Positions 7,071 to 59,581 of a stretch of DNA of 64,000 nucleotides are shown in pieces (the first letter of the stretch is position 1; each line of letters starts with the position of its first letter). The position numbers and the translations under genes were made by a program. Below the pieces are notes generated by a model that did no database searches, had not been told where the DNA came from, and was given only the letters and a program-made list of their open reading frames with translations. The DNA lies in contig OZ316893.1 in NCBI GenBank assembly GCA_973895155.1, positions 11,920,359 through 11,984,358 on the forward strand, read 5' to 3'. This DNA is from Marsupella aquatica. Its lineage: Eukaryota; Plantae; Marchantiophyta.

Positions 7071-8836
7071 ATTTATGGGCCCTGGTCCCTTTGCTGGGTG
7101 CACTTCTGATTGGTAATAGATCCTCTCTATGACTAGTACCTGGACGGAAGTGATTAAGTTGCCGGTACTCTGTTCCTGTATGTTCAACTTTGGTGACAAG
7201 AGGCTATTTTTGAGAGCCCTTCTGCACTTCTCAGTTATCTGGCATCTTTATTTAGAATTTCAATGTTGGCTGTGCTCTCCCCAAAGATGCTTCGACCTGA
7301 AGATTGGAACGATATGTCATCTCATGATGGGAATAACAATATTCTACTTGTTAACGTGGCTAGTTCTTGATGACAATAAGGCTTACCAATGCGTCGTTGG
7401 GATGAGCTCTACTCTGGAATTGACATTTTTGTTACCGCTAGGGTAGGATGGAGTTGGAGAATGCTGACAATGGAGAGCTGCAGAAGTTTTGCAATCTACA
7501 AGGGGCGTCAAAGACTGGTCGGTAGGTAATTCTTAGATCAATATGTAACAAGTACCTACCTCTCAAATGATGCCCACAGTACACAATCAATGGATTTTTG
7601 GTTCACTGCATTGTGGAATTCTAGATGGGCCAAGAAATAGTGTATGTAGGCTTGATAGATGTAGGTTTTGTAGGTTTTGTAGAATGAGTGACAACTTTGT
7701 TTTTCTGTAGACATTAAAAGTTGTTATGTATTTCAAATTGTAACATTCAATCCATCTGATAATACTATTTGTATGTTTTTCTTCAATGACATTTTGTTTC
7801 ATAAATTTGTATTGAGTTGAATAACTATTGCTTGACTTAAATGCATGTACCTTGGATGAAGAGAATGTCTATTATTAGTAATGTCATTTTGTAACTTTTA
7901 TTCAGCAAATCTATTGGATGAGTGTCCTGCATGACTCTTGAATGACACAAACAATGACATAATGAATGGTCACTTCATACACATTTGTTTGTGTCCAGTA
8001 TGACCACTTAAATTTGCTTAACTCAAGTCATTTAAAATATGACCTGAATGACCCACAAAATGACATATAAAATGACTTATTTCATGGTCATTATGAACAT
8101 CTGTATTTATGTCCAATATGACTCGTCTCAAGTCATTCAAGACATATATGTATTTCCATGTGTCTACTCTCAATTCAGCCACGTGCCCCCATATGACTTG
8201 TCTCTAAGTAAGTCATTTTGGACAAGTCCAAAATGACCCAAACCTATTGTCCCATGGTGAATACCATTTTGAGCCATGTGTCACTACTTGATTTGTTACA
8301 TACTATGCGTCATTTTGGACTTGTCCAAAATGACAATTGACCTATTTTCTTTAACTGTCACATGGCATTGTATAATTGGGTACGGAGACTATTGACGGTG
8401 AAAGATGATTGACCGTCGATGGTGATTTTTTTGGTCATTTCAGACCGTTCACCATTTATGACCAAATCGTAAGTTAAGTCATTTCGGATGACATGAAATG
8501 ACCACACATTTTTTGCGTCATTTGTCCGAAAAGACCGTGACGCAAATATCCAATGCAACGCGTCTGGAAAGACGGAAATGGATGCGTCATTGTTTTGATA
8601 AAAAGACTATGTGGGTAGTCATTGTTGCGGTCATAAACAACCATGTTTTCTACTAGTGGAGCCTCTAAGAAAACGACGCCACGGGAGGAGGTCGACAACA
8701 CCGGCAACACGAGAACGGAAGCTCGCATTCCCCTATCAAGGAGCCAGAGGTAGTAACATATGATGTAGTGAGAAATCCGTTGCGCCGGCCTACTCGTAAT
8801 AATCCATATGTAGGCATCCAATTGGTCGAGAGGAAG

Positions 8837-11117
8837 ATGACTGCCGAAGAGAGAAAGAAATATGACGAGCGAATGGATTCGGAAACAGATGAGGAGGTAA
8901 GCCGAAGCCAGGAGAGGCCGGTATTAAGAGCTTCTAATAGAGCCCAAGTGGAGGGACCTGTGGAGGAAAGTCAACCAGCAGCAGCCCAACAATATTCGGA
9001 GGAAGAGATCGAGGGCTTTGGAGGAGAGGCCGGCATGCTAGGTAGTCAGGTTAATGTGGATGATTACGATGACGACTATGTCGATCACGGGGAGAGGCCG
9101 GTACCAGGAGTTAGAACGATGGGAAGGTTTTGTAGAAGACTTCCTGCAGTCTTCTATGGCAAGCCGAAGGACCAGAAAACACCAGAATCTCCTCCACCAG
9201 ATGTGACGCCATTGGAATTTGACAAGATGAAGGAAGCTGAAGCCGGGCTACAAGAGAGGATTAAGGAGTGGGGGGCCCGAAATGCAGAACAGGAATGCCA
9301 GCTACCAGGAGGAGAGTGGTCGGAAGAAATAAGACGGCTTAGTGAGAGGCAGGCCGAACCTCTCACTGACTTCGATCAATTACGGGCAGAAGCCTGGGAG
9401 AAACGACCTTGTTGGCAGATACTAGTATCACCTGGCAGGTCAAAATATGCCAGGGATCGGGCTAGGGAGTATGGAGACATGTGTGGACTGCTCGCCTTAG
9501 AAATCTTCGGCACTGAGTTAGAATCCGGACCATTTCTTAGAAAGGAAATGGCTGACCAAACAAGGTTGGAGGAGGCAATGACGTTGGAGCGGTTAAAGAA
9601 AGAGGAGGTAATCGCTCGGCTTCGCTCCATGGAAGCCGAAGTTGCTAAGACGAAGTCTGGTCAACCAACTCAGCAGGATCTCTTGGCTAAGCAACAGGAA
9701 TTGGAAGTGGCCAACAACCAATTGGAAAACTACCAATTGGATAATCAGCAGATCAAGGAAAATTTGACGAAGGTAGAGCTAGAGTTAGCCGATTCAAAAG
9801 CAGAAGTACAGGGTCTAAATCGCCAAGTCGAGAGGCTCAGAAAGATGGCTAAGGATCAGGCCACCCAGAGCGAGAAGGCCTTGGCAGAAGCCCAAAGGAA
9901 GTATGACAAGTTACTCGACCGGTTGGAGGCCATGTGTGAGAAGCATGAGGACGCCGTTTGCCTAAGCCGAGTCCAACAGATACGCAAAGAGCTTCAGGAG
10001 GAGCTAACCAGGACAAAGCAGGCATGGACGAACGAGGTCACACAACTGGAAGGCATCAACGATTCCCAGAGAGCCGCTTTGGATAAGCAGGAGTTTGAGA
10101 TTGTGCAGATCTTAAATGAGGAGCTGAAGATGGCCAGGTCCGAGATACAATGGCTTAACGATGAAGTTGAAGATGTATCTCAGGAATTGGAGGAGGCCAG
10201 GGATAAGATGCTCGGGTTGCAGAAGCGTGCCAACAATCAAACGGAGAAATTGAAGAAGTATGCCAAAGCGGGATATGGGTCACCAACTGAAAGGCTTCCC
10301 GTCAGTAGTATGGTAGGCGGAAATATAGTGAAGCCGAAGCCGAAGCCGAGCTCACTGTTGTCAAGCGTGACTGGGGGCAAAGCCATGCAGTTGGTGGCAG
10401 ATTTGGCAAAGATGTTCATGGGGCCAGGCGATAATAAAGTGAAGCCCCTTAAAGCCACTCCGGAGGAAGTCGAGAGCATGGCCGCTCACATTTGTGGTAC
10501 TGTGGCCCTGAAGGCAGCTATGGTAGAGGTAAGTACTGTGGATCAACTTGGAGCTGCGGTAACAGGTTTAGACGATGGTATTGCTTCTCTCGGGGGTCTC
10601 ACTACATGGGGACCTCCCCATCACCTGCGACGTTTTTAGGCCTTGGACCCCCTAAAATGTAAGAATTTTTTTTATTTTTTAACCCCTATAAAGTTGGAAT
10701 ATTCTTGGAATATTCCAAAAATTGGATTAAAAAGGCCCTAATGTTCTTATAAGTCTCAAAATTGAATTTAAAAGACCCTATTGTTCTTCTACAAAAATTC
10801 TGAAGTCTTCCCTTACAACCAATAAAATGACCCTATCCTTCGTCGCACGTGATATGCCATTTTTGTGGAAGTGAAACCCCCGAGTTGCTTCTATGGACGC
10901 CCAAAATGTGAAGCCGTGGGTTATCGAGACCGAGCGCATCGGGGAGCAGGCTTGGATTGAGGAAGTTAAGGCAAAAGCTCTCCAGGCCGTTGCCGAGGAG
11001 GATGAAGCCGATGCCGAACCCAAACCCAAAGTCGAGGAAGCCGAAGGGGTCAAGCCGGAGCCGATGGCAGGAGAAGGTGCAGAGTCGGAAGATTCAGACT
11101 TACCCCCGGTCATCTGA
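8837..11117 (+). pseudogene. Long coiled-coil protein ORF (about 658 aa when restored), interrupted by a MITE; probably transposon/retroelement-associated
   Basis: Intronless ORF with first ATG at 8837, acidic N-terminus and a long heptad-rich E/K/Q/L region. Removing 10589-10892 (MITE plus one TSD copy) joins ...GIAS to MDAQNVKPW... in frame, ending at the stop at 11117. Family not recognised. Confidence 0.6.
10589..10884. mobile_element. 296-bp MITE, TIR CTCGGGGGT(C/T)TCACT, 8-bp TSD TTGCTTCT
   Basis: TTGCTTCT at 10581-10588 and 10885-10892. Termini CTCGGGGGTCTCACT / AGTGAAACCCCCGAG. AT-rich core. Confidence 0.92.
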
Positions 11118-12770: not shown

Positions 12771-14868
12771 CAACTCATTCTGGGCTACTTAATTAGAAGT
12801 TTTATGAATGCGGGTTAATGTTTAGTTGTATCACTCAATTAGGAAGGTGAAGGGTTAGCAATTGATTTCTATACTGAACAAGAGTGACTGAACCTAGCTC
12901 TATCCAAAAAGTATAGTATAAAACTAACCCACATATCATGAAGTAACAAACTAGTGTTATAAGAGAATTTGAATGAAGTTTCCAGACTACCATTGTGGGA
13001 GCATAGGTTGGGTAGGGGGTGGAATTGGGAAATGGGCATGATTGGTATCTACAACTATAATAAAGGATCCTGTGTTTTTTGTCCTTTGTCCCAATATAAA
13101 AAAAGCTCTTGGGCGGGGAAGATCCACAGCCGTTGGATTTGTTGGATTTGTTTTGCTGTTTTCCCTGACCATTGATGGAGGAAATGGGCACCCCTGACGC
13201 ATTTGTGTGTTCCCCACATTGTACCATAAATGCCCGGCCCAACTCCCTATGGGCAGGCCCTCCTTGTGCCATGCAAGGGACTGGCATAGGGCTAGTTCAC
13301 CATAGCAAAGCCCTCACATTCAAACATTAGATTCTTAAAGGAAATGGATTCATGAAGGAAATTTCCCCTTTACAAATTAGAAAAAACAAAAACAAAAACA
13401 ATAAATTACTTTCACATACATCCTGCCTTTCCAAAGAAGTTCCAACACACATCTTGTCCTTAGCTAATCGGCAGAATTGATGCGATCACAAAAACCTTTG
13501 TCCTTACCTAAAGATGGGATACATAGGGCGAAAATAGGGTCAGAGCAGGGACGGCCCGAATCAAGCAATTCCAAGAGCTTTAAGGGAAAGGAATGGTTAT
13601 CCAAAGCCACAATGAACGAATCAAGGATTTAATAATACTTAAACTTACTGCAGAAGCTAAACGGAGACCGACAAATTTCATTGTTTAGGGAATTATGTAT
13701 GCAAAATGTTCGTCAGAAGAGCGAAACATGAACTTCTAGGAGCAGCTTTTGGAACACCAGGGACTGACATGACAGTAAGGATGAAGGTGGACTAACCAAA
13801 GAGGGGGCTCTTACTGTGTGTCGTGCTCCACTCTGAAATAGCTCACACACATACATATAGGAGATCTAATTCTAATCCAAGAACATGAATATTTTGAGAC
13901 TGTGGACGTTAATCTTAATAGAAAGCAATGGAATGTCCAGGATCGAGCAGCTAGTTAATATTCCCGTGGGTGAACTCCCCAGAGAAGGCACAAATGTACA
14001 GATCGAGCTTCCTGGCTAGAGATAGATCGAGGCACTACTTCAACAACAATTTATTGATGATCGCTCACAACAACTTTAATTAACACAAGGCGTTCGATCA
14101 GACTGTCGATCCTCTCGAATGTTAAGTCCAGTTTCTCTCTCCGGAGCCTCTTGCACTTGGTCGTGCAGACCTTAGGTTTTATTGAGCCCTCTTGCAATCT
14201 TTAACACAGGACGAATTTTGAACTTTTCTAAATTATACAACTTCACAACGCCTAGGATATCCATGATTGGCCAATATATTAATTAAACGTCACTGGGCTT
14301 ACAATATTCTTTCCAGTAATCATAGATGGGATCGGTCGACCTTGCTGTTCTCTGACCACAAGATTCATGGCCTATCAGACAGCGAATTGAAATCTATCCC
14401 ATCGAAATATGCAGCCCACGAACCGGAAGCTTTTCTAAATCGATAACCCTCGATCAACATAATCATCACCAGTACTGATTGACTGATCAACATAATCGAT
14501 GTGATGTGATACTAAAAATATCAACGCAATTGCCGGCGGTCTCGTTATGTTGTTTTTACACTTCTCCCCTTGACGTTTCCTTCAGAATGATTGATCGACG
14601 TCTATCTTGTCATGACAGACGTGATTTTTGCCTTTCGATAAATTACATGGCGGATCGAACAGAGCGAGACGGCAGCTGCAGCAAGTGTCATTAATAGACC
14701 TCTGCTTGATCTCTCAGTGTCCAGCTACGCCATGATTTTCCGGCTGTACAGCATCCGTTAGAACTACAGACAGTTTAGGTTGCATCGAATCTCAGTCTAG
14801 GCGCGCTGTAAGGTCTCTTCAAAAACCTCCTCTATAATCCTCAAATCTTGTCTAGCTAAGTGCAGAGT

Positions 14869-16551
14869 TTAGAAGCTGGAAGTATTCGAAACGCGGCCCC
14901 CTGCACTAATTAAGGGTTTCTCATTCGAATCGGCACTTGCTTGCCTTCTTCCCTTGTGCTTTCGACTCCTCTTTCTCTTTCGACTATCACCGCTGAATTT
15001 GATCATGTTATCGGATGAGTCGTGAGATGAGCTCACGTCGCCGGCCAGTCGCCCGCGAATAAGCTTTTCCGCCCTCTCCAATTCTGCTTGCAATGTCGTC
15101 GGCAGGTCAGGAGGATCTACGTTACCCTCCATCATCCTCAACACGGTGCTCATTCCAGGTCTCTCGGTCGGATCTCCCTGGAGACATAGAAGTGCAATCC
15201 AAATCAGTCGCTCCGCTTCGTTCGTATCGAATTGTTCTTCTTCGAGCATAAGGTCGACGACGTCCTCTTCTTCTCCTGCTAACACTTTCCGAATTGCCCA
15301 AGCAGGCAAGAAGAGACTGTCCAGGGCCAGGTCCTGATTCTCATGCTCTCGTCCACTCACCACCTCTAGCATTACGATGCCAAAGCTGTAAACGTCCATC
15401 TTCTGGCTGACTGCTGCGACATATATTTCCGGTGCCATATAACCCTTCGTACCTCCCGCAGCCAGAGTCTGTTTCGTCGTCGCTGATCCTAGTAGCTTCG
15501 CCAATCCGAAATCTGCTATTTTGGGCGCATAGACCATATCGAGAAGAATATTTTGTGGTTTGATGTCAAGATGAACAATCATCTGCCCACGCTGGAGTTC
15601 TTCGTGCAGATAAGCGAGGCCCTTGGCCGTCCCTTTGAGGATATCGACTCTCGTCTTCCATGGCAGCACGAAATCCGGATCCACTTTGACATTCTCGAAT
15701 ATCCAGTTATCGAGGGACCCGTTGGCGACGAATTCGTAGACCAGAAAAAAATTATTGTTCTCAAAGGTGAACCCAAGCAGAGCCACCAAGTTCGCGTGAT
15801 TGATTCTTCCCAGAGTCTTCACCTCCGTCTCGAAGTCCTTCACATCGCGTTGCCCGTTAAGCAGCCGTTTGACGGCTATGTCCGTCCCATCCCGGAGAGT
15901 TCCTTTGTACACAACCCCGAAGGCTCCACGCCCAATCTCAACGCTAAACCCGTCGGTAGCGCTATGCAACGTCTCGTAGGACAATCTCTTCCCGAGCTCC
16001 GCACTCGGATAGGAGAGTGCCGGCTTGGAGATACCCGAAGTCGTCGATGCTATGTTCGCTTGACGATTGTATGCGTTCCCCAAGGCCCTGGCCTCAAGCT
16101 TGGCTTCTACATCGTTAGAAATGAATTTATTGAATCTACTTGATTCGTTACCCTTGTCATGAGAACGGCGGCGAAAAACGAAAAGGCTGGCCCCGAGAAA
16201 AATTACCCCCAACCCAGCAACAACACCAATGGCAATTCCAACAGCGGCGCCAGAGCTCAGAGACTTTTTCCCGTTTCCGTTGGAGTTCCAACAAGCACCC
16301 CCAGTACAATTCCCCGCTCCGCAGTAGTCGATCGTGATTCCACAATAGTTATTTTTACTGCAGCAGTAAGTTGGGTCGGGACAGCTCTTCTTTGGGTTGC
16401 AAGATCCAGTGGCACCTCTACTCAATTCCACCTGCAGCAAAGCCGTCACACAGACCAGTGCCAAGATCAGCGGCCAGCTCCGATCAGCCCTCCAACCGAG
16501 CTGTTCTACTCTGCAGCAGGCCGCCCGCATCATCATTCCTGAAAACTTCAT
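14869..16551 (-). CDS. Hevein (chitin-binding type 1)-domain receptor-like kinase, non-RD, copy 1 (560 aa)
   Basis: First ATG at 16551, homologous to the start of copy 2. Hydrophobic signal (WPLILALVCVTALLQV), 8-Cys domain CNPKKSCPDPTYCCSKNNYCGITIDYCGAGNCTGGAC (16291-16401), TM AAVGIAIGVVAGLGVIFLGASLFVF followed by RRR. Kinase motifs GRGAFG, IAVK, HLDIKPQN, DFG, GYMAPE. Intronless. Confidence 0.92.
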   Translation of the reverse strand: MKFSGMMMRAACCRVEQLGWRADRSWPLILALVCVTALLQVELSRGATGSCNPKKSCPDPTYCCSKNNYCGITIDYCGAGNCTGGACWNSNGNGKKSLSSGAAVGIAIGVVAGLGVIFLGASLFVFRRRSHDKGNESSRFNKFISNDVEAKLEARALGNAYNRQANIASTTSGISKPALSYPSAELGKRLSYETLHSATDGFSVEIGRGAFGVVYKGTLRDGTDIAVKRLLNGQRDVKDFETEVKTLGRINHANLVALLGFTFENNNFFLVYEFVANGSLDNWIFENVKVDPDFVLPWKTRVDILKGTAKGLAYLHEELQRGQMIVHLDIKPQNILLDMVYAPKIADFGLAKLLGSATTKQTLAAGGTKGYMAPEIYVAAVSQKMDVYSFGIVMLEVVSGREHENQDLALDSLFLPAWAIRKVLAGEEEDVVDLMLEEEQFDTNEAERLIWIALLCLQGDPTERPGMSTVLRMMEGNVDPPDLPTTLQAELERAEKLIRGRLAGDVSSSHDSSDNMIKFSGDSRKRKRSRKHKGRRQASADSNEKPLISAGGRVSNTSSF

Positions 16552-19187
16552 CCACTGAAATGGACCTGCACGTACCCACCTTTTTCGTGGTCTCTCTAGT
16601 GCCGAAGTCTCATAATCCGGAGCTACTCCCCCGATCAATTCCACGAAGTTTAAGCTGTCCTCCGATCCTAGAGCAAAGTACGTGCTCGACGTAATGAAGA
16701 GGTGGCCGGCTTGCTCGTACGCTAGCTTGGACGATGGCCGGATCCTGGATCGAGGCGATAGAAAATGGATGAGCCACTGATCGATCTGATATTCTGATGA
16801 ACATACGCTAGTAACTGACGCATTCGGAGCCACTTCAATAAATTGGGCACAGGAAAAAGACAACTTACGACAGACCCGAAGCGAAGCTGTCAATTAGTTG
16901 AAACCTTTTAATAATGGCAACAATGACCGAGCCAGACCCGACAAGTGTCTGTGATTAATTCAACTTAGCTTCATGGTGAGGCTAGCTACTACAAAAATCC
17001 GAATGGAATATCTGTCATGGGAATCGCCATCAAACTGCTGGCCTGCAGACCTACACATTATTGAATGAAGTTACTCAAAGTCTAATTAACTCTTCTAAGT
17101 ATTAATATTGCACGACTTCCTGGCAGTTGCAGTCATTTCTTCAATGCCTGGAATTGAAGGACCTCTTCAGGACGGGGCATAGTTCGAGCTCGGTTTCCGA
17201 TTAACCTACACTACGTCGCCATGCGAGAGCCAGGGTGAAACCTAAGGTGTAGGTCAAAAAGGTTTTTAATTAATGATTGACATTCACGTTTGGTGTGGGT
17301 TTGGTGAGCTAGCCTGTGGCTCCCGGGAGATTCTTGTCCCTTCTGGAGTCCCGGAATCCAGGGACCCTCCGTTTCAGATTGGCAAATTCTCGAGGGGTGC
17401 CGGAGACCGTGCATTCTGCTGCATCTGTGGTGCCTCCACGCTAGCGTCAATATTGAGCGGAGATTTCGAAGCCCCTCAGGGACAGACCACCTTCATATAC
17501 AACAAACGACAGTGCAATTTTGTCGATATGAAGATTGGTTTCACTGTGCACGTACCAAACAGCACGCTACTAGCTTTGTAGCTCGACTGATTCTCGATCA
17601 GGCAAGTTTTAATTCACACCAGAGATGCATTCCTACCCCGTGCGTACAAAGACAGACCGGCCACAATTTCTTTGGCCATCGATATCACGTACTCCGATCA
17701 CGCTGCACTCTATACGCTCCTAAAGTATTGAGGATGGACATGGGATTTGGCCAGGATTGCTGATTGATCGAATCCGCTTATATATGTGTGATAGTTATAA
17801 TTTCTTGATACATATAATGAGAAAGTAAACGTCCCATTATTGGATCTGCGATCTGTTGTTCATACATGGAAGACGAGAACGGATCTTTAAGTCGCCAACG
17901 CCCATTGCCCCTTGAATCGTACTTTTGAGGAATGTTTAAAGAGTAGTATTGCATCTAGAAACAAATGCAACTCACAAAGTTAATCAAAACACAATAGTCC
18001 ACTCTTCTTGTGCACCCGACTTGTGCATTGTGGAGTAATTAACCAGGAACATAATGTTAAATAATGCTCATCAGTTTAGTGTTCATGATGTGGCAGTGGA
18101 GCGTGTCCTAGATTTGATTGCAAAGGAAGCTAGTTCGTACTGCAAGCTTAAAACTGATTTTCAGCAAGTTCTAATACGTTATGAGCGAGTTCTAATTATA
18201 AGTTATCTACGAAGCATTACTTCGTCGTTGACACTGCTTTTGAGAACACCATACGGTTCTGACTCACTGCCCGTGATGTATGCTACCGTTAATATTCCTG
18301 CTCTATGCCTTTGAGTGGTCTCGTCGAATGTTGCGTTGGTTTTCAGAACCTCTAGCTAAGGCCGATTCGGCCACAAGGCAAGCTTTTTGTTTTCCTAGAT
18401 TTTCTATAATTGCTTGGAGCAAACTCATTCAATGCCGACAAAATCAAAATATGATGGCCGGCTGACACTCAGTCTATTGGAACCCCATATCTATGATCGC
18501 AATCGCCCACAGTCGAGAATGGTCTCATGATCTCTTTGTGACTGATCAATACAAACATTTTGGGCAGGACACAGTTTGATTGTAGCTGGTCTGTGCAATA
18601 CCAAGTTCTGCATAGTTACCGTCATGTCATTAAATGTTTGCAGTCAGAGCCAAGTGCAATCGCGTTGCAAAAGTGGGCCTCGTGTGTGCAGAATTCCCGA
18701 GACGAAATATGCACTGTGTTGAAGAAGAGGGCTTGTCATAACAAATTGGGAACAACGTTTTTCAGTGCTTTTATGAAAAGCGCCTAAACTAAAGCCTTGA
18801 AGCTTCCAAGCGAAGTGTGAACTCATAGATCACTAACTTGTTTAACACGGCATAAAGTGCCTTTGGCACCATCACCTCACTGTCTCTGCTTTCTGCATAT
18901 ACTGTCAAGACTTCGCATGGGGCGTGTGAGGTTCCAAGGAGAGGGAAGATCACTTCAATAATCACTCAACGAAGTCTTAGTTTCGTCGATAATGCAATGA
19001 GTTCGAACCCTTCGTGCCTCCACATCCCCTTCTGGACATTCCCGTCTGGCCTTGCCCCCCACACTTATGATACTATATTTTGCTGTAGAAAAACAGTTTT
19101 TCAATACGATCACAATAGGTACTTACTGAAACTCTCCAACCATTCTCCATTACAATAGAGACGTACTATTCTACCCTTCTACCCCTA

Positions 19188-19211
19188 ATATATATATATA
19201 TATATATATAT
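19188..19211. repeat. (AT)n microsatellite
   Basis: Run of AT dinucleotides, immediately followed by CACACTGCAAGAGAAAA. Confidence 0.85.
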
Positions 19212-21739
19212 CACACTGCAAGAGAAAAACAGCTACGTGTAACCTCAGTTAGACTTATGATGTCGGCCAGGTTACTCAGGTGTCAACAGAGGAATTTTAA
19301 AACAAGTACTTTACACATTATTTACAGCCCATGCAAGTTCTTCTTCAGGCTCCAGAAAAAGTGTCGAGCCCTCGGCATTAGACTGTCCAGCAAGGTCCCC
19401 TATCTTCTAATGGCGATGTTCCCGTCAACTTTGATCGAGGAGCTTACTTCCTTCTAGATACTCTGTAGAAGCTCCCGAGAAGCTCCTGGTCATCTAGCTA
19501 CTACCGGGGCTGCTAATAGTGGCGACTGATCCCTTGCATCTGAAATTCCCTCCGGATTCTCTGTTGCTGTTTTCTCTGGGCTTCAACGTGGCTGCTGTCC
19601 TTCCGGCTGTCCTGCAGCGTAATTTTCTTCCTGGCCGAGGGTGCTGCTTGAATGGATTCTTCGCAGCTGAAAGTACTCTGCTTTAATCTCCATTAGTTCA
19701 TTGCAGCTACCTCGTCGCCGTTCCTTTCATTGGAATTCCGAAATCCCTGCTAAGCTCTTTCTGGTGCTGCCGCCTTTTCTGTCCAGTTGCGCTTCTCTTG
19801 TAGAACTTTCTCGGGATGCCCAGTGTACAGTAGAGCGGCACTCATTCTTCAATTCTGATTATTTACTTTGTACATTTCCCCTCTTCTCTTCTTGTGATTC
19901 TCTTTTGTCTATTCTTTTGAGATAATGGTGGTAACATTTTTGGGAACCGCACATTTTGCTTGTGACCCTGCCCGCAGCATTCCATGGAACAGCTGCGGTT
20001 TGAGTAGTTGGAGTAGGGCGTCTCAACTCTTTAATTTGGTTTTGGCTCAATCCTGTCAACAGTCAGACATGTTTTCCCAAAGTAAAATGGTATCTGACTA
20101 GCTTGCTAACTTGTCCTACCACTTGTGACCAACGTCCATAACTCACACTTAGACTAGCTCGCTTGTCTTACCACTGGTGACCAACGTCCATAACTCACAC
20201 TTTGGGCTGCAGATCTTTATGTTACTGGGGCTTCAGATTTGAGACACCCTGAGTGAAGAGACTAGAAGAGTAAGCGAAGCCATGGGAAGAGAAGACCTCC
20301 AGAAACTTCTGCAGCACAGGTTGTAGCCCCAAATATTCAAGATTCGTTTTTATGAGGTGGAGTTAGAAAAAAAGCAAAGGAGGCAGTTGGCTGGAAGCTA
20401 GTTTACCAAGGTTGACAACCTGAGTTTTGGGGTCCCAGGGAACTGCACATCAAAATATGACATATGACATCCTTCCAGATCATGATAAACCTTGTTATTT
20501 TCTTTAAATCAATACACACAGTATATTACCATTGATTTGTGATTACCTTATTTTCTTTAAATCAATGAGTCAACAATATATTACCTTTGTGATTACCGGC
20601 AGGGGAGTTTTGTATATATAAAACAGAGCATTTACAACTTACTGCTTAGTACGTACACCAGCCTTGCTATACAGGTTTGTCTAGTATGACTATTTGTGCC
20701 CTTGTCTATGGGTCTACAACTAGTGCAAATAGTTACAATAGACAAGTCTGCCAAAGTTACACAGTATACTATAGTTGGTCCTGATGTCTCCTTCCCAAAA
20801 GCATTATTCAGATAGTTGAAATTGGTGATTCTCAAAAGAGTCCTTCCCAAAAGCTACCTGAAGTGACCTAGTCTAAAGTGGCCTAGCTTTTTGTATCCAG
20901 TCTAAATTGGCCTTTTTGTATCTAGACAGTGTAAACTGGCACATGACTTTATGCAGTCCATAGGAATAGATACGGACAGCTTCTCTGTCCATTCTTGCTT
21001 GCATGGGTTTCCAGTTGCATGGCTTGCTCAAAGATGGCTTCCCTTAAGAAAGCAACAAATATAAAATGTGAAAACCTGTAGATATCCAAATCACTTCAAG
21101 AATTTTCAATTTGTAGTTTTTGGTACGTACTTATGGAAGAGAATGCTCATCATAGTCTGCATTTTGAGATTTGCACTCTACTTGTCTGTCAGGAAAATAG
21201 TAAGATACACTTTGATAGCAAAGTTGGTCCCTGGCTAAACAAAACCTCTAATAAAAACCCAATTTGGGGGCTCCTTTTTTGGCTAGCTAACTCGGAGGTA
21301 TAATGTGAGGGCTCAACAGGAATTTTGACGATGAGGAGAGTATTGTCAGCGAGTCACTAGTGGTTTTAAATTTCTTTTGATTTTTGCTGCCTTTCATATT
21401 TTTAGTGTTTTTTTTGTTACTCCAGTGGCTAGCCAGTGTGCTAGCTAGCCAAAAGAGGATCATTCCCAACTTAAAGTGGCATTGGATATAGAAATAGTGA
21501 CTACAATGACCCCTGCCATTTGGAGTCTTAGAAATAGACTAAAAATATGAAAAGTCAGCAAAATTTTTGACACTTAGAATCACTCATGATAGCTAACAAT
21601 ACTCTCGCTATCCAAAAGTCAGGTTTGCTTGCATCACCCAATACTTCCTCGAAACTTAAGCTAAAGCCCTATTTTTTTGGACATCGTATATATCCAAAAC
21701 GCCTTCATGTACACTGCTGATGGCGGGTAGGTAGAATGT

Positions 21740-22105
21740 ATATAGTAAATTCTTGTTTACAGTGAGGGCATTGTTGTGAGACTGTGCCTTACTTTTGATA
21801 GAAAGCAATGGAATGTCCAGGATCGACGTATATGGTAAATTCTTGTTTACAGGGCCTTGTTGTGGGAGGGCCTTGTTGTGGGACTGTGCCTTACTCTTGA
21901 TGGAAAGCTAAGGAATGTCCAGGGTCGACGTATATAGGAAATTCTTGTTTACAGGGTCTTGTTGTTAGACTGTGCCTTACTCTAGATAGAAAGCAATGGA
22001 ATGTGAGTCCAGGATCGACGTATATACTAAATTCTTGTTTACAGGCCTTGTTGTGAGACTGTGCCTTACTCTTGATAGAAAGCAATGGAATGTCCAGGAT
22101 CGAGG
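21740..22105 (+). repeat. Tandem repeat, about 90-100 bp unit, 4 copies
   Basis: AAATTCTTGTTTACAG...TTGTTG...GACTGTGCCTTACT...GAAAGC...GGAATGT...CAGG(A/G)TCGA recurs at about 21747, 21837, 21939 and 22029. Confidence 0.9.
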
Positions 22106-22571
22106 GGCTACTGTAGTTAATTTGCCGTGAATGAACTCATCAGAAAGCCACGTACATGTAGATCGAGCTTCCTAGAGATCGATCGAGGCACCAATTCAAT
22201 AACATCTGATAACAACAACCGTTTGACATGAGGCGTCCGGAGTGTCGTTTTCTATTGTACAATATCACAACCTCTGCGATATCCATGAATGGCCAATATA
22301 TTAATCGTCAATGGACGTACCATGTTCTTTCCAGTAAGCATCAATTGTATCGAGGTCGTCCTTGCAGTTCTCCGACAGCTAGATTCATGCATGGCCCTGA
22401 TATATGTCTGCCTTTCATGGATTACATGGCGGAAGCAGGTGCACGCGCCGATCAGAGACGGCAGATGCAGCAAGTGTAATTCACAGACTATGGCATCCGT
22501 CAGACCTACAGACTTAGGTTGTGTCGAATCTGATTGTAGTAGTTCTCTTCCAAAACCTCCTTTATAAATCC

Positions 22572-24266
22572 TCAGATCGACCCATTCGAAACGCTATGCC
22601 CTGAATTAACTAAGGGTTTCTCATCCGAATCTATACCTGTGGGCCTTCTTCCCTTGGGCTCTCGACTCCCGCTTCGACTAGTATCACCACTGAATTTAAT
22701 CATGTTATCGGATACCTCGCGAGAAGAGCTCACGTCGCCGGTCAGTCGCCCGCGAATAAGCTTTTCCGCCTTCTCCAATTCTGCTTGCAATGTCGTCGGT
22801 AGGTCAGGAGGATCTACATTAGCCTCCATCATCCTAAACACAGTGCTCATTCCTGGTCTCCCGGTCGGATCTCCCTGGAGACACAGAAGTGCAATCCAAA
22901 TCAGCCGCTTGGCTTCATTTGTATCGAATTGGTTCTCTTGAAAGAGATGGTCAACGACGTCCACTTCTTCTCCTGCCAACACCTTCCGAATCGCCCAAGC
23001 AGGCAAGAAGACAGTGTCCGGGGCCAGGTCACGATCCTCATGATGTCGTCCGCTCACCACCTCGAGCATTACGATACCAAAGCTGTAAACGTCCATCTTC
23101 TGGCTGACGGCTGCGACATATACTTCCGGTGCCATATAACCCTTCGTACCTCCCGCAGCCAGAGTTTGTTTCGCCGTCGCTGATCCTAGTAGCTTCGCCA
23201 ATCCGAAGTCTGCTATTTTGGGCGCATAGAGCATATCGAGAAGAATATTTTGTGGTTTGATGTCAAGGTGAACAATCATCTGCCCACGCTGGAGCTCTTC
23301 GTGCATGTAGGCGAGGCCCTTGGCCGTCCCTTTGAGGATGTCAACTCTCTTATTCCATGGCAGCACGAACTCAGGATCTGCTTTGACATTCTTGAAGATC
23401 CACCGATCGAGGGACCCGTTGGCAACGAATTCGTAGACCAGAAAAAAATTATTGTTCTCGAAGGTGAACGCAAGCAAAGCCACCAAGTTCGCATGATTGA
23501 TTCTTCCCAAAGTCTTCACCTCCGCCTCGAAGTCCTTCACATCGCGATGCCCGTCGAGTAGCTGTTTGACGGCTATGTCCGTCCCATCCCGGAGAGTTCC
23601 TTTGTACACAACCCCGAAGGCTCCGCGCCCAAGCTCAACGCTAAACCCGTCCGTAGCGCTGTACAACGTCTCGTAAGACAATCTTCCCCTGAGCTCTGCA
23701 CTCTGAATGGACATTGCCGAATTGGAGATACCAGAGATCGTCGATGCTACACGCACTTCACGATTGTATGCGCTGTCCCGGGGGTTAGTGTCCATCCCGG
23801 CTTCTAAACCCTGAGCAGTGAATCGAGTTTTACTTAATTCGTTGCCCTTGTGATGAGCACGGCGCCGGCAAGCCACGAAGAGACAGGCCCCGAGAATGAT
23901 CACCCCCAATCCAGCCACAACACCAACGGCAATTCCAACAGCGGTGCCAGCGCTCTGAGACTTTTTCCCATTGATTACAGTAGTGTTGTTGAGTGCCTTA
24001 GCACAAGGACCCCCAATGCAATTCCCCACTCCGCAGTAGTCGGGCGTAATTCCACAAAAGAGATTCTTACTGCAGCAATTAGTTGGGAGCTCACAGGTGT
24101 TGTCAGGTTTGCAGGATCCAAGGTCACCAATACTCAATTCCACCTGCAGCAAAGCCGTCACACAGACCAGTGCTACGATCAGCGGCCAATTCCGATCAGC
24201 CCTCCAACCGAGCTGTTCTACCCTGCAGCAGGAGGCCTGCATCATTGTTGTTCCTGAGGACTGCAT
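22572..24266 (-). CDS. Hevein (chitin-binding type 1)-domain receptor-like kinase, non-RD, copy 2 (564 aa)
   Basis: Signal peptide, 8-Cys domain CKPDNTCELPTNCCSKNLFCGITPDYCGVGNCIGGPC (24003-24113), TM helix, and a complete kinase with HLDIKPQN. Clearly paralogous to 14869-16551. Confidence 0.93.
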   Translation of the reverse strand: MQSSGTTMMQASCCRVEQLGWRADRNWPLIVALVCVTALLQVELSIGDLGSCKPDNTCELPTNCCSKNLFCGITPDYCGVGNCIGGPCAKALNNTTVINGKKSQSAGTAVGIAVGVVAGLGVIILGACLFVACRRRAHHKGNELSKTRFTAQGLEAGMDTNPRDSAYNREVRVASTISGISNSAMSIQSAELRGRLSYETLYSATDGFSVELGRGAFGVVYKGTLRDGTDIAVKQLLDGHRDVKDFEAEVKTLGRINHANLVALLAFTFENNNFFLVYEFVANGSLDRWIFKNVKADPEFVLPWNKRVDILKGTAKGLAYMHEELQRGQMIVHLDIKPQNILLDMLYAPKIADFGLAKLLGSATAKQTLAAGGTKGYMAPEVYVAAVSQKMDVYSFGIVMLEVVSGRHHEDRDLAPDTVFLPAWAIRKVLAGEEVDVVDHLFQENQFDTNEAKRLIWIALLCLQGDPTGRPGMSTVFRMMEANVDPPDLPTTLQAELEKAEKLIRGRLTGDVSSSREVSDNMIKFSGDTSRSGSREPKGRRPTGIDSDEKPLVNSGHSVSNGSI

Positions 24267-27200
24267 CCAACGAAATGTACCTGTACCTGGTGATCCCTCG
24301 CGTGCCCAAGTCTCACAATGCGAGCTAGCTACTTCCCCGATTCCACGAAGTTTAAGCTGTGTCCGATTCCTCGTCCGATCCTAGACCAAAGTACGTGCAC
24401 GACGTAAATAAGAGGTGGGCGGCTTGCTCATACGCTAGCTTGGACTCCTAAAACATCCGCGAGGACGAGAGGAGCTTGGACACGGACCGGATCAGCTAGA
24501 TCGAGACGACAGACAACGAACGAACCACTGATCAATCTGATGAACGGACGCTGGTAATTAAGGTAAGTGCAAGGTTTGAATGAAACGTGATCGACCCAAG
24601 CAAGGGTGAGAGGATATACGTACAGGCAAGAGGGGGAGAGATTAGCCCCGGGTGACCAGGCCAGGATCCCGGCGAGGATGAGCACCATGCTTTGCGCTAC
24701 TTCACCCAATCAGTCAATGCAACAAGAGAGATGCCATCTAGCACTGTGTTCTACCCACTACTGATCACTAGCTCGTGCCTTCTCGATCAGTCAGCGCAAG
24801 TGTTGGGAAACAATGCTTGAACTGTTTGTCCTAAATTCGAACACCTCCACTCGACCACCCGCGTGCTAGCCCTCGTCTCCCGGCATTCGACTGTAGCTCA
24901 CCTCATCAAACGGGAACGTTTACTCATCAATTGAAAACCTGCTTGATACAAACTTAAGGTTTTCACTCTCTGGGATGACGACGTCGTGTAGAATCGGGGC
25001 TCTACCTATTCCTCGGCCTGAGGAAGTTTAGATACTCGGAACTCGTGCAATGCAGAGAAGACTTACTGTAGACTTCGAACAAGTTCAATGATGCGCAGGT
25101 CTAGAGGAGCTCAATTGCGATTCCCCATGATGCACTAGATAACGCCATGAAGCTAAGTCTGTTGTATAAATTCACAGTTGGCGGATCTGCTTGGTCACTG
25201 TTGCCGTTATTAAAGCATCTGAACTGTTTCCGAGTAGTTCGTCTAGAGTAACGTGATGTTGACCAAATCAGGTAACATGCTATTTTGGCCAATCCTGTCA
25301 AATCAAGCCAAACGGGAAGCCCAGTGGGTGCCTAGTGCCTTAGGGCCTGTCAAAATTGTGCCCTGCTGGTAATTACACATATAATATAATGTGTGCATAT
25401 ATTGATTTAAAAATAAATAAAGAGGTTTATCAGGTACGGAGGAATGTAATACATGTTATATGTCATATTTTGATGTGCAGTTACCAAGACCCCCAAAGTT
25501 CTGGGTGTTGAGTGCCTTATTAGTGCCTGTCAAAGTTCTGGGTGCAGAGTGTGTTATTAGGGAGTGCATGTCAAAGTTTTCTTTCAACGCAAAGTGTTAT
25601 GGGGGTTTTAGATGTAAACAATTTCTTTCCACTGGTCACAGTTGGAAAGGGTGTCCATGTTGTGAGAATAGAGAATCACAATATAGTCACTCAAAACTTT
25701 CACCACATGATTTTCAGTATCTGCACAGTTATGAAATTGATTTCCATTGTGGGTAGTACGTATGAACAAGGTTAGATGGTTACCTGGAGTCAAAGGTCTT
25801 CAACCAAGTCGCAATGGAGTGTAGCATTAGTAACTTTTCTATTTTTAGTCATGACATTTGTAACTCCAAGGGTCATAATCAAAGTCACGGCAAGTATAGT
25901 CACTTACAATTAACAAAGTCACACAAGCTGAAAATAGTCACATATTTGTTGGGTAAATTGTCAACCAGGATCGACACAAGAGTCACATCCAATGTGCACG
26001 CCAACAACTCATGCACATTCACCATGAGACTACACAGCATATAAGTGGTTCACCCGGATGGGCTACGTCCACTGTCGTCGAGGAATCACTAATGATCAAA
26101 TCATACATGGTCCACCATAGCCTCCTCCGCAGAGCTCTAAGGCGTATCTCCTCTCTAGGTCTTTCACCGACGACCTCACTATGTAGAATGAGTTCCACAC
26201 TGGAACTCTCTAAGGTATTATGCTTACTCGAGTGAGCCACTTCACAAACTGTGCTAGTGTCTAACTAGAGCTAATGCTAGCCGCAATTAGCGGAGTACAA
26301 GGTAGAGGCAATACCTAACAATATTGTCTGAATGTGAAATTTTCTTCTAGTGTCTTATGGGGCTTGTATTTAATTCTAGGTAATATGTAACTCCTTACGT
26401 TGTGGCCATAAAACAATTTTATTGCTTTACCTGTATCTCATTTATGGCGTTGTTTTGGCATGTCCTATTGGGAGGGAGCCCGAGTGACTTAATGGGAACT
26501 AGAGATATTATTGAAGAGTACTACTTGATGAACCCCATGAGGTAAGTTGATTTAAGGTCTGGGCGGGATCACTCATGATCCCATAAAGTAACAATTTTCA
26601 TTTACTTACGGGGTTGGCCCAAACAAAAAAATTTAATGAAAATAGGGATGGCAAAGGGAAATTGGGTTATTGGAATGCTTTGGTATACTATCCTGACTAC
26701 CCATGAATCCCTTCCTTAATTAAAGTAAATAGAGACAAAGACCAAAAAAACAATGAATATTGCCAGAAAAACCTTCTATGCTATTTCCCCTTCATCTTTG
26801 CCCTCGTCTTTGCCATCCCTATTTTTTAATTTTTTTTGGTGGAAACGTATGTCATGCCTTTATTCATTGACTGAAAAAAAACAAGGTGCCCGTCAGAGAG
26901 GAGGAGATGGGAAAGACAAAAATGAACCAAAATAAGGGGGCTAGGTCGGAGAGAGAGCACCCTAAGAGATCGAGAAGAATGAGGGCCAAGCGAATCTAGT
27001 CTGCCAATCCCTGGTATTATTTGTCCAACCTCATTTTCAATTTTGTCCTAATTGAGAGTCACCAACAGATTTGTCTTTTTTAAGAGTTACGGTCCGAAGG
27101 CTTCACTCAAGACCCTAGCTCTGGAAAGTAACTCTGTATTGCACTTTATTAGTAAGATATTGACTGTAATAGGTTTTTTAGTTGAACTAGATTTGAGCAG

Positions 27201-56519: not shown

Positions 56520-58648
56520 CTAATAACCTTAATAAATGTCCTTAAACTTTTTGTGCAAATCCATAAATAAAAAAACTAGGTTGTAATTGAAGGCATGTGG
56601 GCTTCTTGTCTGACATGGTGGTGGCTGTTGCATTTAGGGTGAGGCCAAACCAAGAATAAAAGGAAAATTATTGTATGCCATTGTGCCGAGGTGAAGCTCT
56701 TAGTAACCCTTGCCATGTGGGGCAGATCAATATTGCTTCCCCAATTTTGTTTTCAATTCAAATCGGTAACTGGGTCCCATAACCAGAGTGATACGAAGGC
56801 CCTGCAACTTTCCATCATGGCCCAGCTTTGACACATCCTATTGTTATAATATATTTTACATATTTATTTATAAAAATAATGGGATACACTTTTGCTTTGC
56901 ACATATTTAACGACATCTTTTACTTAATTACATCTTTTTTGCAATGACATATTTTATTTAACAACATCTTTTGGACAACCACATACATGTTTTACTTACC
57001 GGCATCTTTTCAGTAAAGACATCTTTCACTTAAGGACATCTTTAATGAAACTACATGTTTATGCAAAAACGTCTTCTGTGCAAGGATAATAGATTAGGTA
57101 CGCTTTTGCTTTCCAGGTAGTCTAAGCATTCTGTCTAGTCTATCCTTACAACAAGAAATAGCCCTGTAAAAAAGTCTGGAGTCTATCTTTACCACAAAAA
57201 ATGGCCTTCGAGTTTGTTTCGATGAAAACGAGCCCGCCACCCTGAAGCTCTCACCGTGAGCTTCAACCTGTGAAGGTGAATGAAAAGGTGGAGGTAATGA
57301 AAAGATGGAGGTAATGAAAAAGGTGGAGGGTTGTGAGCGAGAGAAAAAAGACGAGAGCTTTTACGGTTGGGGATGCTCACGTCTTCTAATTCAATGTCAT
57401 TATGCCCGACATCCGAGATGAGATACTTTCGATTAGGGATTCACAGTAGTGCTTTGTGCTCGATTCGTTGCACAAGCAGGGAGTAAGGAGGCAGAGATAA
57501 TGCAGAGGCCGGCGACAGCCCTGCTGCAAGAACGGTTCTCTTCGTTTGCCTTTTTGGGCTGCAGTCAGTCTAGTCTTCTCTCCTTTCTCTAGTGCTTTGT
57601 TTTTGGCTCTTCTTCTTTGGAATGTGCCTCAGTGAGGGGAAGAGGTGATGAGCTCCCGGGGTTTATCTTTTCGTGAGGTTTGTGAATCCGAGCTGACTTT
57701 TCTGAGTAGACCATCGTCACTCATCAGACACGTTCGGGAGCTGTGTTTTGAGTCACAATAGTAGATGGGAGATTCCGGATTTATTTTACGTCATGAGAAT
57801 GGATGGTACGTAGTGGAATAACATGGATTTGCTATGGTGAGATCTCCTTTCGTAGCGCCCTCGAGTATGAGTCGTCGACGTGGGAGCTGGTTTTGATTTA
57901 ATTTACAGAGTTCTGCCTTTGGAACACATTTAGTTTCTTCATTATTTCTTCCCCTCATGTCACACCCTTACTTGTCCGGACTGAAAAGATGAATCATGGG
58001 TGAAGAGATTCAGCTTTGCTGCGCTTTTCCGGAAGTTTCACTCCGAGAGTTTAATCATTGAAGTTGGTGTTTAAATTGTCGAGAGTGCGCTCAAGGTCTG
58101 TCCTCATATTTGCTAACATCAAGTTCAAATGCGCTCAATGGTAGCCCGGATTTCCTATCCACCCACTGTGTTGTGCATGGGGACGGCATTTACTCGTTAA
58201 CTCCACTGATTGAGGTAAAGAGTGTTATGAACGCTTGTTCAAATGATTTGAACAGATGCCTCCCACGCTGTAGCCATTGATTGCCAAGTGATTTGCGAGC
58301 TGCCAAGTTACTGGGTAGGATTTTTCGAGTTGGCAGGTTACTGGAGCGGTCCATTTGTTCTTTTGGCCACTACCTCCCTGCCAGTGCAGAAATGAAAGGA
58401 TCGATGTACGCCAGTCATCTCTTCTGTAGATAGAAGAGATTTGAACGTCAGCGGACGCACCAAAAGTTGTGATGGTCCCATCAATGCACCGATGAGATTG
58501 AGGTGTGAGGACAGTGGAATGAGCAAGTGACCAGGTTTGCTGAGTTCTGAGCTAAATTGCGCCAATAAGCCTGTCCTCGTTCGCGACCGTCAGCAGGACG
58601 CTTCTGTAGCACGGAAAGCAATTCTTAATGAAAGAAGCCAAGTAAGCC

Positions 58649-59581
58649 ATGGCGGACTGGACAGTCGTTCGGCACAAGCGAGGAGGCACTGCTGGGCGGA
58701 GAACTTCTGCTGAGAATGTTATCCAACAATTGAATGTTCTCCCTTCCGGCAACAAAAGATCATCTGGTGCTGCTGGTCATGTCGGCTTTTACTCACCCAG
58801 ACCGCCCCCCAAATCAGGTTCTCCGCCTTCCTCAGTCATCGAGGACGCCAATGAATTGAACCAAGAGGAAAGGCTGCTGGGTAAAATGCGACGAGCGAGA
58901 GAAAAAGTTGAGCAGTCAGTGTTCTTTTCTAGGTTCATGAAACAGATGCAGGATTTGGAAGTCATGAAGAATTTGAGTCGCAGTGGGTCTGGCAAAGCCG
59001 GAATGGAAGAAGAAGAAGAAGAAGAAGAAGAAGAAGAGAGATCCAATGACGAAGGCAAGGAGCAGTCCTCAAGAAGCCCAAAGGTGGAGCTTGTCGTGTA
59101 TGGAGTGGGGAGCATTACCAACTCTGAGATTTCCCGATGCCAGCTTTCTCTCGCCCTATTGATGAGGCAAAAGTTAGCGGAGATCATCGGGAACGTTTTT
59201 GTCTACGATCCTGTCATGTCTCCCTCAGACCGAAAAGTGATGATTGAGCTTGGTTTCTCCCCACTCGAGAATAACGACGAGGGAAGAAGACCACTGCTTG
59301 GACCCACTCTCTTTTATATGCCCCATTGTGATGTAGAGCTCTACGAAAGCGTGTTGCAGGCGAATTTGAAGCCCAAGAGTGTCGATCAGATGGTCATTCT
59401 GGGGAACAGTTTTCGTACATATCAGCACAGATGGTCGGTGAGGCCATTGCCGCATGGAGAACGTCCTTCTTGTTTGTTGAAGGTGCAGCCAACCGTAGAA
59501 GAAGTACCAGTGGCTGACGATTTCTCCCCCACTGCCTTCAATGATACCAGCTGGCACTTCTTTTCCAAAATCGAATTTTGA
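58649..59581 (+). CDS. SRR1: SENSITIVITY TO RED LIGHT REDUCED 1-like protein (310 aa, single coding exon)
   Basis: SRR1-domain motifs LVVYGVGSI, RCQLSLALLM, VYDPV, EGRR, PTLFYMPHC..LY, ILGNSF, AFNDTSWHFF. Contains a (GAA)n poly-Glu tract at about 59006-59036. Confidence 0.92.
   Translation: MADWTVVRHKRGGTAGRRTSAENVIQQLNVLPSGNKRSSGAAGHVGFYSPRPPPKSGSPPSSVIEDANELNQEERLLGKMRRAREKVEQSVFFSRFMKQMQDLEVMKNLSRSGSGKAGMEEEEEEEEEEERSNDEGKEQSSRSPKVELVVYGVGSITNSEISRCQLSLALLMRQKLAEIIGNVFVYDPVMSPSDRKVMIELGFSPLENNDEGRRPLLGPTLFYMPHCDVELYESVLQANLKPKSVDQMVILGNSFRTYQHRWSVRPLPHGERPSCLLKVQPTVEEVPVADDFSPTAFNDTSWHFFSKIEF

Follow-up and report, generated by a model that had tools for sequence, protein, structure and literature searches.

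The plant chitin receptors characterised so far rely on LysM domains. In Marchantia polymorpha, Mplyk1 and Mplyr mutants neither produce reactive oxygen species nor induce genes in response to chitin (bioRxiv 2022.12.28.521631). In M. paleacea, the calcium influx elicited by the chito-oligosaccharides CO4 and CO7 is lost in lyka and lyr lines, and MpaLYR binds CO5 and CO7 at nanomolar levels (PMC12184373). The hevein, or CBM18, module is the other classic fold that binds N-acetylglucosamine (GlcNAc), and its fusion to receptor kinases has been published before: Bellande et al. (2017) noted that two receptor kinases of M. polymorpha (UniProt A0A176WS68 and A0A176WDS5; PMC5485988) contain one or four CBM18 modules, and Van Holle and Van Damme (2019) recorded hevein(2x)/kinase and hevein(4x)/kinase architectures, once each in M. 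polymorpha, among them Mapoly0103s0065 and Mapoly0123s0006 (PMC6362431, Table S3). Row 97 of that table also gives a hevein/jacalin/protein kinase combination, once each for Chlamydomonas and Sphagnum. Here we describe a tandem pair of single-module hevein receptor kinase genes, A and B, located at 14869..24266 of a 64 kb stretch of Marsupella aquatica DNA (the window). To judge from their residues, the hevein modules of the family to which A and B belong have kept the first sugar pocket and repeatedly lost the second, and this pattern is specific.

The two M. polymorpha proteins are among the closest known systems to A and B. Mapoly0103s0065 (MpRLK-Pelle_SD-2b) belongs to the cluster of A0A176WS68 and Mapoly0123s0006 (MpRLK-Pelle_SD-2b6) to that of A0A176WDS5; these UniProt entries are cluster members of P0010 and P0007, respectively (P-numbers denote protein rows of our homologue set, P0001 being gene A and P0002 gene B). 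They share with A and B the hevein module(s), a transmembrane (TM) helix and an HLD kinase, with 49–50% identity over 87% of the length, but carry 2 and 4 modules, whereas A and B have one and lie in a separate single-module subclade. Since the architecture had been listed in both surveys (PMC5485988, PMC6362431), with Marchantia entries from the same clade, it is not new; the first-pass annotation of the locus, which proposed a distinct receptor class, had not excluded such a listing. That annotation also knew of no functional characterisation, and on this point it holds: no functional study of hevein receptor kinases was found in the open literature (subscription journals, receptor kinase databases and bioRxiv supplements being outside reach), hevein, CBM18 and chitin-binding do not occur in a 2026 receptor review (PMC13006823), nor hevein in a fern receptor survey (PMC12512272). 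The family is thus listed in domain surveys and apparently uncharacterised.

The coordinates of both genes are given in Table 1. They are intronless, uninterrupted reading frames on the minus strand, and the proteins are organised as first annotated: a hydrophobic segment at the N terminus, a single hevein-like module of 8 Cys with a CCSxxxxCGxTxDYCG core, a very short stalk (~15 residues between the last Cys and the TM helix in A, ~21 in B), the TM helix and an intact kinase with HLDIKPQN instead of HRD. Each hydropathy profile has two hydrophobic peaks, compatible with a signal segment (predicted in A and B from hydropathy alone) and a TM helix, so that a hevein-type module lies N-terminal to a single TM helix and an RLK/Pelle kinase in both cases. 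The motifs GxGxxG, IAVK, alphaC-Glu, HLDIKPQN, DFG and APE were all found in both kinases; the catalytic set appears complete, and the residue before the catalytic Asp is not Arg (non-RD).

Each ectodomain is a divergent hevein-like one and contains eight Cys (residues 46, 52, 58, 59, 65, 72, 77 and 82 in A). The expected match to Pfam Chitin_bind_1 (PF00187) was obtained for both, with 20.9 and 19.9 bits (E 4e-4 and 9e-4); however, neither score reaches the gathering cut-off of 27.8 bits. The top sequence matches in the PDB were wheat germ agglutinin (WGA) and related hevein lectins. An AlphaFold model of the 43-residue ectodomain, based on an alignment of 17 rows and of modest quality (pLDDT 66), was compared with 48,161 chains: 7 matched at Z ≥ 2, all of them hevein-type (best Z 3.7, root-mean-square deviation 1.0 over 29 residues). 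Such low Z scores are expected of a 43-residue model, and the predicted structure agrees with the sequence result. Foldseek gave no match to the model at E ≤ 0.001, the first 30 rows listed being nearly all hevein-type, and the ESM Atlas gave no usable match. An EGF-like fold was rejected, as the PDB sequence and Z-score matches are hevein-type and the Foldseek rows nearly all so; the Cys pattern, Pfam, the PDB lectins and the predicted fold together uphold the initial hevein/CBM18 assignment. A homologue search restricted to residues 1–130 found nothing at E ≤ 0.01 among 926 candidates.

In hevein, the non-reducing GlcNAc is bound by Ser19, Trp23 and Tyr30, and a second subsite is formed by Trp21 and Glu1 (PMC6908686); in Ac-AMP2, replacement of any of the three aromatics by Ala weakens chitin binding (reviewed in PMC10136942). 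A and B resemble hevein, the WGA domains and Ac-AMP2 in the eight-Cys pattern, the predicted fold and the presence of Ser19, an aromatic at position 23 (Tyr in A, Phe in B) and Tyr30. They differ from these proteins, which are soluble or chitinase-linked, in being fused to a membrane-tethered kinase, and also in having Asn in place of the canonical aromatic at position 21, a feature overlooked in the first-pass annotation. No alternative letter is listed for codon 21 of gene B in the contigs of four sequencing runs. Across the family (25 domains in 17 proteins), Ser19 is present in 24 domains, aromatic-23 in all 25 and Tyr30 in 24, whereas only 10 have aromatic-21. The full aromatic triad occurs in one or more domains of 8 of the 17 proteins and in no domain of the other 9; aromatic-21 is absent from 8/9 members of the A/B subclade. 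Six different non-aromatic or charged replacements occur at this position, whose state changes at least four times on the kinase tree. By comparison, aromatic-21 is kept in 170 of 186 plant hevein motifs from outside the family, as counted by hand in the first 189 rows of part 1 of Table S5 (PMC6362431), three rows (those of the two Marchantia hevein kinases and of an adjacent fragment) being set aside. With these three included, position 21 is non-aromatic in 19/189 rows, and the 17 other Marchantia rows are aromatic.

The protein closest to A and B is Calypogeia fissa CAM6091375.1 (P0003; 72% identity, full length), which resembles them in having a single module without aromatic-21 (Ser is found there); PF00187 is unrecorded in P0003, so that domain surveys would miss it. 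The next relatives are other proteins from C. fissa, M. polymorpha, M. paleacea and Riccia, in line with a liverwort related to Calypogeia as the probable source of the window. All named members (Calypogeia, Marchantia, Riccia) are from liverworts, P0004 and P0016 being without a named source, and the family is liverwort-only in the sense that only liverworts occur among the named matches. Among these matches, it comprises 7 clusters in C. fissa versus 2 in each Marchantia species. Profile searches did not enlarge it: one gave no additional member among the best 120 matches, a list crowded by multi-kinase proteins, and another, against 1.84 billion cluster representatives, retrieved 7 known members and zero new hevein-bearing protein among the best 150, where multi-kinase proteins extend down to 430 bits and below which distant hevein kinases of mosses, hornworts or ferns could score. 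A separate entry, P0125 (Mapoly0123s0007), is a 108-amino acid hevein-only model that adjoins the four-module Marchantia kinase and falls in its 90% cluster; it is a fragment, a split model or a soluble companion.

Kinase trees were computed from 54 and 33 of the 101 single-kinase rows and rooted on CRKs only; they did not include multi-kinase rows, three near-duplicates or most of the redundant angiosperm G-type rows. The 54-row tree unites the 20 family rows in a single clade (support 97/92), 19 of them having the hevein motif and one (P0020) being apparently truncated. A and B are sisters (99/89), joined next by P0003 (100/99), and the listed Marchantia CBM18 kinases fall in the same clade. 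As one C. fissa cluster matches both window genes, the A/B duplication is likely younger than the split from C. fissa. The 33-row tree, obtained under a mixture model, recovered the hevein clade with a Shimodaira–Hasegawa-like approximate likelihood ratio test (SH-aLRT) value of 96 when an M. paleacea Cache/vWA kinase was included. This kinase, P0065 (Mapa_014331), has Cache and vWA families in its ectodomain (PF02743, PF00092) and groups in both trees as sister to the hevein clade (100/98; 96), on a long branch; one liverwort kinase lineage may have captured two unusual ectodomains.

The hevein clade stands beside, not inside, the G-type SD-2b kinases sampled in the two trees (LRK10L, SD-1 and WAK being absent), and its Marchantia members carry SD-2b names in their source. 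SD-2b kinases of the SD2-5-like type were the nearest non-hevein kinases in the searches and are mostly HLD; their ectodomain is bulb-lectin/PAN, that of A and B hevein. The proposed fusion of a hevein module to a non-RD, SD-2b-like kinase is supported. The non-RD state had in addition been taken as a sign of a pattern-recognition receptor. However, among the nearest single kinases outside the family 64/78 are HLD and 3 are RD; being common to SD-2b-type relatives, the motif is not independent evidence and adds little to a chitin-receptor reading.

A and B constitute a real tandem duplication, in agreement with the initial description. Positions 14884-16732 and 22584-24445 are 84% identical over ~1.85 kb and the 3' flanks show patchy similarity of 74–79% (blastn); gene-wide dS is 0.245. 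In run X1, an independent public assembly, separate contigs cover parts of each gene with zero differing letters. An assembly duplicate was rejected on account of the 84% identity of the copies and of these separate contigs. No further copy was found in the window by tblastn, and a six-frame scan of its 64 kb located the hevein core pattern in 2 places, corresponding to genes A and B.

The kinase is under purifying selection and clearly maintained, the ratio of nonsynonymous to synonymous rates (dN/dS) between A and B being 0.25 (95% confidence interval (CI) 0.15–0.37). The ratio is 1.19 (0.61–2.03, using gene-wide dS) for the hevein module and 1.45 (95% CI 0.95–2.15) for the juxtamembrane segment; nonsynonymous change is ~5 times faster in the ectodomain than in the kinase, and 15 of the 33 non-Cys module positions differ between the copies. 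The 8 Cys, Ser19, aromatic-23 and Tyr30 are retained in both, and also across the Marchantiales and Calypogeia. Runs X3 and X4 contain, beside a contig identical to the window, a second gene-B-like haplotype at 23990-24049, in which the module and stalk have lost 3 bases in frame and show five listed substitutions, four of them altering a residue when taken singly, with no change at position 21. This haplotype may represent an allele, a mixed sample or a third paralogue.

The reading that we favour, with a probability of about 0.4, is that A and B would act as weak, avidity-driven plasma-membrane sensors of terminal GlcNAc on microbial surfaces. It is drawn from the retention of Ser19, aromatic-23 and Tyr30, the loss of aromatic-21, the purifying selection on the kinase and the lack of constraint at non-structural ectodomain sites; these features likewise suggest that A and B are likely not high-affinity receptors for soluble chitin oligomers. 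Each protein would be delivered to the plasma membrane, where it would expose a single disulfide-rich module a short distance from the membrane. The retained pocket, as its residues suggest, would bind a single non-reducing GlcNAc weakly, and several receptors would be clustered by a dense GlcNAc surface, either a hyphal wall or a glycoprotein near the membrane; since the stalk is so short, the glycan target would itself be near the membrane. By analogy with non-RD receptors in general, A and B could signal with an RD-type partner kinase towards a defence or accommodation output, which would supplement, and not replace, the LYK/LYR chitin system at close plant–fungus interfaces.

Several points weigh against this proposal. 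The comparison of A and B gives no support for positive selection on the ectodomain, since a value of 1 lies within the dN/dS interval, and variability is just as high in the juxtamembrane segment, so that the divergence is accounted for equally well by relaxed constraint. Folding, and not sugar binding, could be the reason why Ser19 and Tyr30 are retained. The domains behind the 10/25 count of aromatic-21 are phylogenetically non-independent, and the Fisher p-value for this count is descriptive only. SH-aLRT support for the hevein clade goes down to 84 under the mixture model when the Cache/vWA kinase is left out. Finally, the binding and signalling roles suggested for A and B are deduced from sequence.

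The hypothesis originally put forward, that A and B are LysM-independent receptors of chitin oligomers, now seems very doubtful. A and B would resemble MpLYK1/MpLYR and MpaLYKa/MpaLYR as cell-surface receptor kinases directed at GlcNAc-containing ligands; the LysM receptors differ in their unrelated ectodomain, in the CO5/CO7 binding of MpaLYR and in being required for chitin responses. The predicted hevein fold, the intact non-RD kinase motifs and the full triad of 8/17 family proteins are all compatible with such a function, and the window organism is not a Marchantia, so that its wiring may differ. However, A and B both lack aromatic-21, and chitin responses vanish in LysM mutants of the two Marchantia species despite hevein kinase genes encoding at least one full-triad domain in both (P0007, P0011, P0025), an argument that presupposes expression of these genes in the tested thalli. 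The hypothesis is thus weakened by Asn21 and by the mutant phenotypes, and the non-RD status is not independent evidence for it.

Loss of aromatic-21 in most of the subclade, the variety of its replacements and the divergence of A and B at non-Cys positions would also be accounted for if the hevein fold served to lure a protein, for instance a protease or effector with which fungi attack hevein-domain chitinases, and if binding or cleavage of the fold triggered the kinase; fungalysin is inhibited by hevein-like WAMP peptides whose sugar site is weakened (PMC10136942). We regard this as unlikely, given that 24–25 of the 25 domains retain each residue of the primary sugar pocket and that a dN/dS above 1 was not demonstrated. 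A role in development, in which A and B would sense an endogenous glycan or the state of the wall (for example, GlcNAc-ended glycoproteins), is quite improbable. It would fit the short stalk, which places the domain at the membrane–wall interface, the persistence of the family in every liverwort genus seen, and the identity of the two Chitin-binding type 1 genes listed as CO7-induced in the M. paleacea enrichment table (PMC12184373), which are GH19 chitinases and not kinases. Tandem duplication, lineage expansion and fast ectodomain change are, however, more typical of immune receptors, and all three are found here (7 versus 2 clusters in the case of expansion). The least probable alternative is that the ectodomain is decaying with no relevant ligand, the proteins acting through their kinase as ligand-independent partners or regulators: an ectodomain dN/dS compatible with 1 and a Pfam score under the cut-off agree with decay, but the 8 Cys and the three pocket residues have been kept in both copies, despite 15 differences at the 33 non-Cys positions, and across the Marchantiales and Calypogeia.

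Table 1. Positions in the window of the features of genes A and B and of the duplicated segments
Feature	Position	Strand	Details and basis
Gene A coding sequence (P0001)	14869..16536	-	Stop at 14869; 555 amino acids from ATG 16536
Gene A alternative in-frame ATG	16551	-	Open reading frame analysis
Gene A predicted signal segment	16411..16536	-	Residues 1-42, hydrophobic core ~20-40; hydropathy
Gene A hevein-like module, Cys1-Cys8	16291..16401	-	Pfam, PDB sequence match, predicted structure
Gene A site codons: Ser19; Asn at 21; Tyr23; Tyr30	16357-16359; 16351-16353; 16345-16347; 16324-16326	-	
Gene A TM helix (approximate)	16174..16242	-	~15 residues past last Cys; hydropathy
Gene A kinase domain	15127..15939	-	HLDIKPQN at 15550-15573
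Gene B coding sequence (P0002)	22572..24266	-	Stop at 22572; 564 amino acids (ATG 24266) or 557 amino acids (ATG 24245)
Gene B predicted signal segment	24123..24245	-	Hydropathy
Gene B hevein-like module	24003..24113	-	Pfam, site alignment
Gene B site codons: Ser19; Asn at 21; Phe23; Tyr30	24069-24071; 24063-24065; 24057-24059; 24036-24038	-	
Gene B TM helix (approximate)	23871..23939	-	~21 residues past last Cys; hydropathy
Gene B kinase domain	22824..23636	-	HLDIKPQN at 23247-23270
Duplication copy A	13892..16732		blastn
Duplication copy B	22051..24445		Gene, 3' flank and ~200 bp of 5' flank; blastn

Some other features of the window were noted. A tandem array of ~4 units of 89–102 bp lies 3' of gene B (21738-22140), and a unit matching it is also found 3' of gene A, at 13892; as the unit occurs downstream of both genes, the array was amplified in one copy after the duplication. 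Between the genes, contig depth is ~10-fold higher at 20239-20605 and 21272-21706 in all four runs, and the latter segment has inverted repeats of 18–21 nt; both are likely small high-copy mobile elements. A 656-codon open frame at 8669-10639 (plus strand) has a long coiled-coil-like stretch and no significant match in a Pfam scan; it is possibly a retroelement structural gene. The open frame at 58646-59581 (plus strand) has an SRR1 domain (E 1e-38) and appears to be an ordinary single gene.

A and B belong to a kind of receptor already published in 2017, which limits the value of the pair as a discovery. What is new is that these proteins form a single clade spanning Marchantia, Riccia and Calypogeia and larger in Calypogeia, that several members score under the Pfam cut-off and are therefore overlooked in surveys, and that the modules have repeatedly lost the second sugar subsite and kept the first, from which terminal GlcNAc, and not long chitin oligomers, is predicted as the ligand. 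The family is also tractable, M. polymorpha having only two members among the matches and LysM mutants being available. As a tentative scenario, to which we give less weight than to the function proposed for A and B themselves, liverworts may have evolved their own class of glycan receptors from a hevein module and a non-RD kinase; a Calypogeia-type lineage would then have expanded this class and shifted the specificity of the module from chitin chains, the terminal-GlcNAc pocket being kept, the aromatic that stacks on the chain lost and the residues around them varied among paralogues, with each copy directed at its own type of microbial surface containing GlcNAc (or at an effector that targets hevein) alongside the LysM system. 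If this is true, liverwort receptors built on the hevein fold would represent an independent route to fungal sensing.

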